Of a stretch of 64,000 nucleotides of DNA, positions 23,546-25,645 are shown in pieces. Origin of the DNA: Parcubacteria group bacterium M6-OD1-3 (lineage in GTDB: Bacteria; Patescibacteriota; Minisyncoccia; Moranbacterales; UBA9337); contig LSNR01000002.1 of NCBI GenBank assembly GCA_003056165.1, forward strand, positions 2,726 to 66,725. Direction: 5' to 3'. A model generated the notes under the pieces. It did not search any database, was not told the origin of the DNA, and saw nothing but the letters and a program-made list of their open reading frames with translations. The position numbers and the translations under genes are program-made. The stretch's first letter is position 1; each line of letters starts with the position of its first letter.

Positions 23546-25645
23546 AAGGAGGTGATCCATCCACAGCTTCCGCTACGGATGCCTTGTTACGACTTCGTCC
23601 CTATCACCAGCCCCACCGTTGTTCCTGCTATGACACAAGACCTTCGGGTGTTGCCGGCTCTCTTGACGTGACGGGCGGTGAGTACAAGATCCGGGAACGT
23701 ATTCACCGGGACATGGCTGATTCCCGATTACTAGTGATTCCGGCTTCATGGAGTCGAGTTGCAGACTCCAATCCGAACTGAGACCAACTTTTTGGGATTA
23801 GCTCCACCTCGCGGTTTCGCAACCCTCTGTATTGGCCATTGTAGCACGTGTGTAGCCCAGGGCGTCAAAGGGCCATGCTGATCTGACGTCATCCCCTCCT
23901 TCCTCCCAGACTTTAATGCGCTTCGCTTTAATTTTGAATTATGAATTTTTAATTTCAATTGAATTTTTTAAATGAATTAATTTTTAATTCCGAAATATTA
24001 ACTTTTAAGTTTTAAGCTTTACTTCAAAAAATTATGTCATTAAAACATTAGTTCATTCAATCAAAATTTAAAATTGGAAATTCAGAATTGTACACGAAGT
24101 GTACTAAAGTCTGGGCAGTCTCGCGTGACATATATAACACACGACAGGGGTTGCGCTCGTTACCCCACTTAAGGGAACACCTTACGGCACGAGCTGACGA
24201 CGACCATGCAGCGCCTGCTTAGCGTTCTCGAAGACGCTTCTATCTCTAGAAGCCACAGCTAAGTTTCAAGCCCTGGTGAGGTGCCTCGCTTAATATCGAA
24301 TTAAACCACATGCTCCACCACTTGTGCGGATCCCCGTCTATTCCTTTGAGTTTTAAGCTTGCGCTCGTACTTCCCAGGCGGCATATTTAACGCGTTAGCT
24401 ACGACACTAGGAGGGTCGATACTCCTAACATCTAATATGCATCGTTTACGGCGTGGACTACGGGGGTATCTAATCCCCTTCGCTCCCCACGCTTTCGCAT
24501 CTCAGCGTCAGAAAAGTGCCAATTGAATGCCTTCGCCTTTGGTGTTCCTCATGATATCAACGCATTTCACTACTACACCATGAATTCCATCAATCTCTCA
24601 CTTTCTCTAGATATACCGTTTCAAATGCAGTTTCCGAGTTGGGCTCGGAGATTTAACATCTGACTAGTATATCCGCCTACATGCGCTTTACGCCCAATAA
24701 ATCCGGATAACGCTTGGGGTCTCTGTATTACCGCTACTGCTGGCACAGAGTTAGTAACCCCTTATTCAACTGATACCGTCAATTTCGTACCTTTTTAAAT
24801 TCAATTTATTAAATTCAAAATTATTCAGATAATTAGTTTTGCGGACGAGTGGTAATAATATACTCATACTCGTCCTTGTTTTTTAATTTTCATTATATAA
24901 TAGTTATATTAAAAGAATTAAAGTAATACAATTTTATTATATCTTTAATATCATCTATCTCCAAAGGACACGTCACTTTGAACCTAATAGAATTCATATG
25001 ATAATTTATATCCTCCATCTGCACACCTTCAATTTCTTCGATTTGCGAGACTAAATTTTCAATGTCCACCATATTGCTATTTTCGTCTGCTGGCATTATC
25101 CAATATGTTTTTTCTTCTCCCATTGTTACCTCCCTTCTCTCTTGTCTTCAAGGAAACATCGACTTTTCATACACAAAAACAAAACCAATTATCCGAACAC
25201 AATTTCAAATTAAATTCAAAAAGGTACGAACTTCTTCTCAGTTAAAAGCAGTTTACGACCCTAGGGCCTTCATCCTGCACGCGGCGTCGCTCCATCAGGC
25301 TTTCGCCCATTGTGGAATATTCTCGACTGCAGCCTCCCGTAGGAGTTTGGACAGTGTCTCAGTTCCAATGTTGGGGATCACGCTCTCACGCCCCCTACCC
25401 GTCATAGCCTTGGTGAGCAATTACCTCACCAACAAGCTGATAGGACGCAGGCCACTCCTTAAGCGATAAATCTTTACTCCGTAGAGCACATCGTGTATTA
25501 TTCCGGATTTCTCCGGGTTATTCACGACTTAAGGGTATGTTCCTACGCGTTACTAACCCGTCTGCCGAGGGTCTAAACCCTCTCGACTTGCATGCCTTAT
25601 CCACGCCGCCAGCGTTCATCCTGAGCCAGGATCAAACTCTCAATA
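23546..25645 (-). rRNA. rrs: 16S rRNA gene, about 2.1 kb, with two large insertions (about 23912-24108 and 24792-25222)
   Basis: 5' end 'agagtttgatcctggctcag' (RC at 25621-25640), '530 loop' gtgccagcagtagcggtaatac, 3' end 'ggatcacctcctttct'; no 23S/5S in window. Confidence 0.9.
24893..25123 (-). CDS. 76-aa acidic ORF inside the 16S h17 insertion, same strand as the rRNA
   Basis: Strong SD 'gagagaagggaggtaacaATG' read directly; no LAGLIDADG or other motif recognised. Confidence 0.4.
   Translation of the reverse strand: MGEEKTYWIMPADENSNMVDIENLVSQIEEIEGVQMEDINYHMNSIRFKVTCPLEIDDIKDIIKLYYFNSFNITII

Follow-up and report, generated by a model that had tools for sequence, protein, structure and literature searches.

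The 16S rRNA gene and its transcription unit

The window, by which the whole 64-kb stretch of DNA analysed is meant, carries a full-length 16S rRNA gene of 2103 nt on the minus strand at 23545-25647. This interval was matched by the Rfam model SSU_rRNA_bacteria (RF00177) over model positions 1-1533 with a score of 1340 bits. The functional regions of the core are intact, as is the canonical anti-Shine-Dalgarno 3' end, and in the covariance model (CM) alignment h39, the 1120-1150 region, is shortened. On its sequence the gene is assigned to a Candidatus Moraniibacteriota bacterium (Parcubacteria, CPR/Patescibacteria), and matches to its 515-region signature are mostly titled Candidatus Moraniibacteriota or Moranbacteria. 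At least 119 species-representative loci (GTDB representatives) were retrieved with a 26-nt version of this signature and are referred to below as the relatives. The nearest 16S genes among the matches listed share 94-95% identity with that of the window (best 94.8%), and a near-identical allele free of the insertions, i.e. an empty site, was not present among these GTDB-representative matches.

No 23S or 5S rRNA match was obtained anywhere in the 64 kb with the Rfam scan, which bears out the original prediction that the 16S gene is uncoupled from both within the window, and the 23S gene was also absent from the 8-kb blocks of 18 relatives. From the sequence and duplex prediction, a leader segment (25887-25900, minus strand) would pair over 14 bp with a trailer segment (23389-23402, minus strand) to enclose the 16S gene in what appears to be a classical RNase III-type processing stem. 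The best promoter-like site 5' of the gene (TTGACA-16-TATTAT with TG, 11/12) is at 26418-26445, and a terminator-like hairpin followed by a T-run is at 23338-23366, ~180 nt beyond the 16S 3' end; both are on the minus strand and were identified by consensus match only. The terminator-like hairpin would fit transcription of the 16S gene as a unit of its own.

Two insertions at the apices of h17 and h40

In each of two solvent-exposed helices, h17 and h40, the apical loop is replaced by a long, A+T-rich, almost fully paired extension. The CM alignment placed both extra stretches inside the gene and none of it outside, at the helix apices, as had been anticipated from the pairing of their flanks within conserved helices.

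The h17 insertion (24787-25224, minus strand; 29% G+C) is 438 nt in the CM alignment compared with 6 nt in the model. The original prediction had correctly identified the site, the paired flanks (UUCGUA(CC)...(GG)UACGAA) and the approximate size, which it put at 431 nt. The predicted fold is more stable than dinucleotide shuffles (z = -5.8) and starts from a basal stem with two 27-nt arms, the 5' arm at 25207-25233 and the 3' arm at 24781-24807 (both minus strand), which lie 399 nt apart and are 89% complementary; the MFE fold lengthens this stem to ~45 bp. The base of the h17 stem, CGUACCUUUUU/AAAAAGGUACG, is homologous to CGCACCUUUU/AAAAGGUGCG of the relatives L008 and L005, with compensatory change. 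Three other metagenome assemblies (VAPM010077810.1, VAPL011084557.1 and VAPK010434256.1) contain the insert with both of its junctions and misassembly at h17 was therefore rejected. When the longest of the three was compared base by base, 3 mismatches were found in 3235 nt, every one of them outside the 16S gene.

The second insertion extends h40 into a hairpin of 211 nt (23905-24115, minus strand) closed by CCCAGAC...GUCUGGG. Its CM-defined part (23910-24109, minus strand; 21% G+C) is 200 nt compared with 4 nt in the model. The 211-nt structure is a single unbranched hairpin with 73% of bases paired and a z of -7.3 against dinucleotide shuffles. It had been described as an insertion of about 200 nt in the 1120-1150 region; the size and the paired flanks stand, and the helix needs correction, as the alignment locates the insertion just 3' of that region at the tip of h40 (E. 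coli ~1161-1175, insertion at ~1167). The 3' junction is present in contig LSNR01000002.1 only, since the other assemblies break at window position 24093 inside the hairpin, and equivalent h40 extensions are present in relatives.

The 76-aa ORF in the h17 insertion

The h17 insertion carries a cassette consisting of a Shine-Dalgarno-led orphan ORF of 76 aa (24893-25123, minus strand, the same strand as the rRNA) and then a stem-loop. The Shine-Dalgarno sequence GGGAGG (25129-25134, minus strand) ends 5 nt 5' of the ATG and is complementary to the CCUCC at the 3' end of the same 16S gene. Directly 3' of the ORF and still within the insertion is the G+C-rich stem-loop (GGACGAGU...ACUCGUCC; 24843-24875, minus strand), which was recognised from the sequence and is also present in the MFE fold.

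The encoded protein, which includes the stretch MGEEKTYWIMPADENSNMVDIENLVSQIEEIEGVQMEDINYHMNSIRFK..., yielded identical copies only when searched against 5.8 billion clusters (word-indexed) and 1.84 billion representatives (exhaustive phmmer). In scans of metagenome and viral contigs the only matches were identical copies belonging to the same population, and no homologue was detected by tblastn in the window and 119 listed loci. A sub-threshold match to EF1_GNE was the only result with Pfam; LAGLIDADG, GIY-YIG and maturase domains were not found, nor was PF05635 (23S_rRNA_IVP, S23p). AlphaFold in single-sequence mode gave a beta-alpha-beta-beta-alpha-beta model with a pLDDT of 75.6 and a pTM of 0.63, compared with 40.7 and 0.30 for an antisense control ORF, and a ferredoxin-like fold is predicted with confidence. 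A Foldseek search of the model against the PDB returned the generic ferredoxin-like fold, with no match below E = 0.001. The weak resemblance to IS200-type TnpA was rejected, as the protein lacks the HUH motif and is half the size. ORFs as long as this one occur in 4.7% of shuffles, and because of this and the lack of a homologue the ORF may not be expressed.

Distribution and variation in relatives

Among the matches listed, extra sequence of at least 50 nt was found at h40 in 37/83 relatives and, more rarely, at h17 (8/117). Every sampled relative among these matches has a lengthened h40, of at least ~43 nt, so that some extension of this helix is taken to be a fixed part of the rRNA of the clade. 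All 35 of the h40 hairpins of at least 80 nt (34 relatives and the window) close from end to end, 29 of them as single unbranched hairpins, and at 211 nt the window hairpin is the joint longest, with L020, of the 79 sequences from which the site was extracted. A comparison of the basal 14 pairs of the extension in 65 distinct relatives showed 90.4% of cells paired and compensatory changes in 11/14 pairs, a level of pairing reached by 0/500 shuffles. Further out the h40 sequences are not alignable even at 94% 16S identity, and the arms lengthen distally through mirrored short tandem repeats. The h40 extension is present across the clade and evolves fast, and compensatory change preserves the pairing at its base.

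The h17 extension is a sporadic landing pad for small gene cassettes. The ORF at this site in the relative L005 encodes a GIY-YIG nuclease (Pfam, 1.5e-14) and that in L086 is another orphan; at h17, as at h40, the distal insert sequences are unrelated among relatives. Inserts of ~860-1290 nt were also observed in relatives at a different site, near core position ~1350, and these may be introns.

A dispersed repeat shared with the ATP synthase operon

A copy (24055-24082, minus strand) of a 28-nt dispersed repeat (AATTTCCAATTTNNAATTTTGATTGAAT) is located in the h40 insertion, on its 5' arm. This repeat occurs five times in the window against an expectation of zero, and the four copies outside h40 are all in spacers of the ATP synthase operon. 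The spacer copies include inverted repeats around a gene of the 23S_rRNA_IVP family (PF05635, S23p; 36546-36905), and the inverted repeats on either side of this gene are similar to those of the h17 insertion. The repeat is common to the h40 insert and to hairpin-bracketed GIY-YIG and S23p cassettes in the operon. Degenerate copies with 3-4 mismatches were detected only in or adjoining the h17 and h40 insert regions of relatives. The repeat had no exact match in viral contigs and a phage origin was rejected on this basis. Another inverted-repeat pair, at 13366-13959, encloses no convincing ORF. When the relatives L067 and L080 are compared, the h40 loop seems to have existed before the insertion took place in it.

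These observations allow a wider proposal that we regard as distinctly doubtful: both rRNA inserts would be copies of genome-wide, hairpin-bracketed mobile cassettes that settle in tolerant transcribed hairpins and spacers (16S h17, 16S h40 and at least four ATP synthase operon spacers) and carry along small genes of selfish or accessory type (GIY-YIG, 23S_rRNA_IVP and orphans), with the h17 copy bringing a new 76-aa ferredoxin-like protein translated from an RNase III-released, end-paired intervening sequence (IVS) RNA. If this were true, the rRNA operon would double as a platform for the expression of protein genes.

Nature and fate of the insertions

The reading that best accounts for the two inserts, to which we give a probability of about 0.62, is that they are CPR rRNA insertions of the non-intron, IVS type and are probably excised by RNase III. 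Both have the long basal duplex (~20 bp or more) at a helix apex that is characteristic of IVSs, as well as the sporadic presence and variable sequence (counting h40 at 50 nt or more). The original prediction that they fit the pattern of CPR rRNA insertions agrees with the CPR affiliation of the 16S gene, with the position of the inserts at helix apices and with precedent in the literature (PMC11270868).

The proposed sequence of events is as follows. The 16S gene would be transcribed as a stand-alone unit, and on folding of the pre-rRNA the inserts would form double-stranded stems of 20-45 bp. RNase III, which would probably also cleave the 14-bp leader-trailer stem, would then excise the inserts without religation, leaving a functional 16S rRNA in three pieces of ~423, 677 and 365 nt, which ribosomal proteins and what is left of the stems would keep together. 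Once released, the h17 RNA, with its ends paired, might itself be used as a small mRNA from which the 76-aa ORF is translated. At the DNA level, the inserts may have originated and spread as palindromic elements that are mobile or prone to slippage. No RNase III gene is encoded in the 64-kb window, and the proposal supposes that the genome has one elsewhere.

It is possible, if unlikely, that both hairpins instead stay in the mature 16S rRNA as the bacterial counterpart of eukaryotic expansion segments, with the h17 hairpin projecting from the body of the small subunit and the h40 hairpin from its head. By analogy with E. coli this would be physically feasible, as ribosomes of that species remain functional with insertions i7 (h17 461-469, with no growth cost) and i15 (h39/h40 1153-1162), and these sites, with which the window inserts coincide, correspond to the eukaryotic expansion segments es5 and es9 (PMC2441807). 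The minimum length of h40 in the sampled relatives among the matches listed and the growth of the distal arms by mirrored tandem repeats, as in expansion segments, also favour retention, and the strong covariation found at the base of the stem is as compatible with retention as with processing. However, the distal sequences are unconstrained and change wholly between 94%-identical genes, and a Shine-Dalgarno-led ORF such as that of the h17 insert would be odd within an assembled ribosome. Long perfect duplexes are, moreover, natural substrates of RNase III, and removal from transcripts has been reported for CPR rRNA insertions, which are common (cited in PMC11270868).

That the inserts are introns (group I, group II or of an unknown class), self-splicing or protein-assisted and with religation of the exons, is very improbable. 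Group-I-like elements are described as making up more than half of CPR rRNA insertions, and group-II-like ones as some of those in 16S genes (PMC11270868), and the inserts near core position ~1350 of relatives may belong here. However, Rfam scans of both window inserts at a permissive E<=10 returned chance matches of snoRNA and miRNA type and no intron family, by which group I and II introns are largely refuted. Both inserts are also in variable helix apices rather than in the conserved sequence targeted by homing introns, a catalytic core could not be accommodated in the plain hairpin of the h40 insert, and the 76-aa ORF is without an intron-type domain. Least credible of all is that the inserts are chimeric metagenomic joins or that the 16S gene is a decaying pseudogene copy: breaks in assemblies are indeed seen within the h40 hairpin and near the 16S 3' end, and the h40 3' junction comes from a single assembly, but the h17 insert recurs with both junctions in three others, the longest of which is identical across its 16S part, comparable hairpins occupy the same sites in dozens of independently assembled relatives, and the core scores as an intact gene over the full model.

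The inserts mainly provide a clean example confirming that large non-intron insertions occur in CPR 16S genes, a peculiarity that is already well described. Genes of this kind escape amplicon surveys and break assemblies, as the three assemblies that end inside the h40 hairpin illustrate. Relative to published surveys, three points go slightly further: in the sampled Moranbacteria-type clade the h40 extension is universal (among the matches listed), hypervariable and kept by compensatory change; small gene cassettes have docked repeatedly at the truncated tip of h17; and a repeat from an rRNA insert is also found in hairpin-bracketed cassettes of a protein-coding operon. There may be a link between rRNA intervening sequences and palindromic mobile elements of reduced genomes as a broader class, and the locus may bear on whether an rRNA precursor can act as a source of mRNA.

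Comparison with known systems

The window resembles systems with dispersed palindromic repeats (REP/MITE-like) in that the 28-nt h40 motif recurs in four intergenic hairpins and its copies are partly inverted repeats around a gene of selfish type. Unlike them, the motif is A+T-rich and short. Inverted repeats are present, and neither a target-site duplication nor a link to a transposase was detected for the repeat or the inserts.

With the expansion segments of eukaryotes and archaea (es5 in h17, es9 in h39/h40) the inserts share surface positions, hairpins that extend a helix and rapid change in length by repeat slippage. Expansion segments are retained in the ribosome and are without genes, whereas the h17 insert has its Shine-Dalgarno-led ORF.

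The IVS in helix 45 of the Coxiella burnetii 23S rRNA is an ORF-bearing element of 428 nt, similar in size to the h17 insert, and is excised by RNase III; its ORF is apparently untranslated in vivo (PMC4990558). In both cases a helix apex is drawn out into a long stem around an ORF, the element turns up in some relatives and not in others, and the genome of the host is reduced and has few rRNA copies. The window inserts are in 16S h17 and h40, in contrast to H25 and H45 of the 23S rRNA for IVSs, and their excision is a prediction. The 76-aa ORF also differs from the frequent, though not obligatory, S23p ORF of IVSs, a gene of which family is found elsewhere in the window.

The closest likeness is to the non-intron insertions of CPR rRNA genes (Brown et al. 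2015, cited in PMC11270868; Tsurumaki et al. 2024), for which the following is taken from one survey (PMC11270868). Insertions were present in 48% of CPR 16S genes, with numbered hot spots 16IS1-10, and many were short, non-intron, ORF-less and at helix tips; the short non-intron ones were proposed to be RNase III IVSs (Tsurumaki et al. 2024). LAGLIDADG or GIY-YIG accounted for 90% of the Pfam-annotated ORFs in 16S insertions, and GIY-YIG genes were confined to non-intron insertions. The window h17 ORF is unlike these surveyed ORFs in having neither a Pfam domain nor a homologue. Both window inserts exceed the 100 bp or more of extra sequence used by Tsurumaki et al. (2024), and they share with the surveyed insertions a CPR host, a 16S gene of single-copy type, a location at stem-loop tips where the gene is less conserved and freedom from group I/II signatures. 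The short ORF-less kind has its counterpart in the ~200-nt h40 insert, and the kind with GIY-YIG in the relative L005.

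Location of the 16S rRNA gene and its insertions

The whole window was scanned with Rfam at the gathering threshold, and the only rRNA match was SSU_rRNA_bacteria at 23545-25647 (model positions 1-1533, 1340 bits), alongside two tRNAs. The gene lies on the minus strand, which corrects the original prediction; the claim that it is uncoupled from 23S and 5S genes holds, as neither was found across the 64-kb window. Covariance-model alignment places two large insertions within the gene, at helix apices. At the apex of h17, 6 model positions correspond to 438 nt in the gene (24787-25224, flanked by UUCGUA and GAAAUUGACGGUA), and in the apical loop of h40, delimited by a second Rfam scan restricted to the 3' half of the gene, 4 positions correspond to 200 nt (23910-24109, flanked by ACUGCCCAGA and CUGGGAGGAAGG). 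The predicted sizes of 431 and about 200 nt are borne out, as is the pairing of both sets of flanks. The assignment to h17 also stands, but the second insertion is not in the 1120-1150 region (h39); it occupies the h40 loop, and h39, the helix preceding h40, is shortened in this gene. The h17 and h40 inserts have 29% and 21% G+C and the whole gene 43%, so the core has, by arithmetic, about 50%; the window has about 31%.

The 16S gene is stand-alone and is enclosed by a 14 bp leader-trailer stem (25887-25900 with 23389-23402), read from the sequence and by duplex prediction. By consensus matching, a strong promoter-like site precedes the gene by 770 nt, and a terminator-like hairpin follows it at a distance of 180 nt. 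In 8-kb blocks of 18 relatives the 16S gene is also alone, several having 3-6 kb of downstream sequence. The first 15 nt of the 16S (25633-25647; plus-strand sequence AACTCTCAATAAAAT) are repeated directly in the leader (25720-25734), some 85 nt before the mature end. A cluster immediately downstream, also on the minus strand (18155-22284), encodes a PrsW-family protease, a MazG-like pyrophosphatase, a Schlafen-group-3-type helicase (637 aa) and RadC, and is possibly an island for defence or stress beside the rRNA gene.

Folding and conservation of the insertions

In minimum free energy folds both inserts continue their host helices. The h17 insert (-114.5 kcal/mol, z = -5.8) has an inverted repeat at its ends, with arms of 27 nt (24781-24807 and 25207-25233) that are 89% complementary and whose pairing the predicted fold lengthens to roughly 45 bp; the h40 insert (-62.7 kcal/mol, z = -7.3) forms one unbranched hairpin.

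One genome per GTDB species was scanned with the 515-region string of the window gene, GTGCCAGCAGTAGCGGTAATACAGAG, which was present in at least 119 loci, mostly titled Candidatus Moraniibacteriota or Moranbacteria among the matches listed; other MAG names on some of them are probably mislabelling. The closest among the matches listed are L008 (94.8%, partial gene) and L063 (94.0%), compared over the insert-free core. Blastn hits of this core were chained, segments between conserved anchors were extracted, and extra length was counted relative to the insert-free core of the window.

The h40 extension is clade-wide and hypervariable, with a covarying base. It has at least 50 extra nt in 37 of 83 relatives among the matches listed, and in "uninserted" relatives h40 is still 43-48 nt (CCC to GGG), the bacterial consensus apical loop having four positions; h39 is shortened too. 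The 211-nt hairpin of the window is one of the two longest among the matches listed, equalled by that of L020. Counting the window and 34 relatives, 35 hairpins are at least 80 nt long; every one is closed from end to end, 29 of them as a single unbranched hairpin. Covariation is strong in the 14 basal pairs, 11 of which show compensatory changes. Pairing holds in 90.4% of cells, a level that none of 500 shuffles attains; shuffles give 64%, and sliding the partner gives 30-53%. The distal arms are A+T-rich and consist of short tandem repeats, each arm mirroring the other, and they are unalignable even between genes of 94% identity. Between L067 and L080, an approximately 88-nt block lies within the loop of a short hairpin that is otherwise identical.

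The h17 extension is sporadic and cassette-bearing. In most relatives h17 is truncated (13-16 nt between anchors), and at least 50 extra nt occur in 8 of 117 relatives among the matches listed. L008, L005 and the window have a basal stem in common, in which U-A replaces C-G as a compensatory change, and the distal contents are unrelated: a plain 121-nt hairpin in L008, and in L005 an insert coding for a GIY-YIG protein of 82 aa (Pfam, 1.5e-14). Another orphan ORF is encoded in the insert of L086.

Further insertions were seen in the 16S genes of relatives. Those at core positions ~1350 (roughly 460-1290 nt, mostly ~860-950 nt) and ~750 (~1030-1200 nt) are likely intron sites, and hairpins of 60-160 nt occur at core positions ~65-82 (h6) and ~178-183 (h10). 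Such loci include L005 (262-2045), L086 (3369-5664), L110, L081, L115, L006, L027, L013, L069, L091 and L011, with four insertions in some genes, as in L086.

An ORF within the h17 insert

Between the arms of the h17 insert, on the rRNA strand (minus), is a 76-aa ORF (24893-25123) with a Shine-Dalgarno-like GGGAGG 5 nt before its ATG and a G+C-rich stem-loop downstream (24843-24875), both read from the sequence. Length by itself says little in favour of a gene, because 4.7% of dinucleotide-shuffled versions of the insert contain an ORF at least as long. No Pfam family was found, the sole match being EF1_GNE below threshold (E = 0.008). Nothing but identical copies came from 5.8 billion clusters (word-indexed search), 1.84 billion representatives (exhaustive phmmer), scanned metagenome and viral contigs, or the window and the 119 related loci listed (tblastn). 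The single-sequence AlphaFold model predicts a beta-alpha-beta-beta-alpha-beta fold with unexpectedly high confidence (pLDDT 75.6, pTM 0.63), against pLDDT 40.7 and pTM 0.30 for a control, an antisense ORF of the same region. Foldseek against the PDB gave generic ferredoxin-like folds only, none with E < 0.001. That the ORF is a gene is plausible but unproven.

A repeat shared with cassettes of the ATP synthase operon

Allowing up to 3 mismatches, a 28-nt motif in the 5' arm of the h40 insert (24055-24082) has four further copies in the window, against an expectation of zero. All four are in ATP synthase operon spacers (32735, 36500, 36932 and 38477). Two of them make up an inverted repeat (36500-36526 and 36933-36959, 27 nt, 96% complementary) around a 119-aa 23S_rRNA_IVP-family gene (36546-36905, minus strand; PF05635, E = 3.4e-17). 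This spacer (36484-36969), between atpA (36970-38460) and atpG (35527-36483) on the minus strand, is an intervening sequence (IVS)-like cassette in a protein-coding operon. The 590-nt atpD-atpC spacer (32751-33340; fold z = -4.2) is closed by a G+C-rich stem, UGUCAUCCUGGAA.../...UUCCAGGAUGACA, and encodes a 94-aa GIY-YIG protein (32955-33239, minus strand; Pfam, 6.6e-14), of the same family as that in the L005 h17 insert. An ORF-less 126-nt hairpin carrying the motif lies in the atpH-atpA spacer (38461-38586, z = -4.9), the atpG-atpD spacer (34712-35526) holds an ORF of 132 aa that weakly matches CYTH (34869-35267), and atpB is closely followed by a perfect palindrome of 54 nt (40099-40152). 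Degenerate motif copies (3-4 mismatches) in relatives fall within or beside the h17 and h40 insert regions, and none was found elsewhere in those loci. The rRNA inserts are thus similar to hairpin-bracketed cassettes, with some sequence in common, and the operon-spacer cassettes carry exactly the gene families known from Candidate Phyla Radiation (CPR) rRNA insertions.

Elsewhere in the window, a PEP-utilising/PPDK-like gene is seemingly split (49335-52779, minus strand): ORF 52081-52779 spans PPDK_N profile positions 3-224, and ORF 49335-51059 opens with positions 228-319 followed by a PEP-utilizers domain. Wedged between them, with gaps of 26 and 2 nt, is a 330-aa RhuM/Fic ORF (51062-52054), one of two Fic/DOC-domain proteins in this 64 kb of a small genome (the other at 14151-15200) and the one fused to a RhuM-type domain. 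An IS200-like Y1 transposase ORF (233 aa, 53309-54010; element 53282-54012) is bracketed by perfect arms of 23 nt (53282-53304 and 53990-54012), both of them palindromes in their own right (ATATGGAGGC..GCCTCCATAT), an arrangement reminiscent of REP-associated tyrosine transposases.

Fate and origin of the insertions

The reading we favour, at a probability of roughly 60%, is that these are non-intron hairpin insertions, excised by RNase III and spread at the DNA level as palindromic elements. Excision without religation would leave 16S fragments of about 423, 677 and 365 nt, and the released RNA could serve as a template for translation of the 76-aa ORF.

It is rather unlikely that the inserts are instead retained in the 16S rRNA as expansion segments. 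In favour of retention, E. coli ribosomes stay functional with engineered insertions at h17 461-469 and h39/h40 1153-1162 (PMC2441807); against it, Brown et al., as cited in PMC11270868, report that CPR rRNA insertions are removed from transcripts. Introns are a very improbable explanation, as a permissive Rfam search (E up to 10) gave no group I or group II intron or other credible family in either insert. An artefact is similarly improbable, since the h17 insert and both junctions recur in other metagenome assemblies.

The identical 76-aa ORF is on three NCBI metagenome contigs of different assemblies. The longest, VAPM010077810.1 (3235 nt), aligns to 24093-27327 with 3 mismatches, all upstream of the 16S, so the insert and its junctions are reproducible. 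Two of the three (L121/L122 and L123) cover 17 nt of the h40 insert before breaking off at 24093, and a Logan contig stops near 23566, where the 16S has its 3' end. Such breaks are expected of palindromic, low-complexity sequence, and in assemblies of the same population they indicate that hairpin inserts fragment short-read assemblies.

Comparison with known insertions

Of 380 CPR 16S genes, 48% have insertions of at least 100 bp, with the sites clustered at the top or base of a stem-loop (Tsurumaki et al. 2024, PMC11270868). About half (187/378) are intron-like, GIY-YIG genes are confined to the non-intron insertions, and the remaining short ORF-less insertions are proposed to be RNase III-type IVSs (PMC11270868). 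The Coxiella 23S IVS (428 nt) bears an ORF, probably untranslated, and is excised by RNase III (PMC4990558). The inserts described here match known CPR insertions in site type, form and host and are therefore of a known kind; the observation in the original prediction is confirmed, and its interpretation as the CPR pattern supported. The orphan ORF and the repeat shared with operon-spacer cassettes add modest interest.
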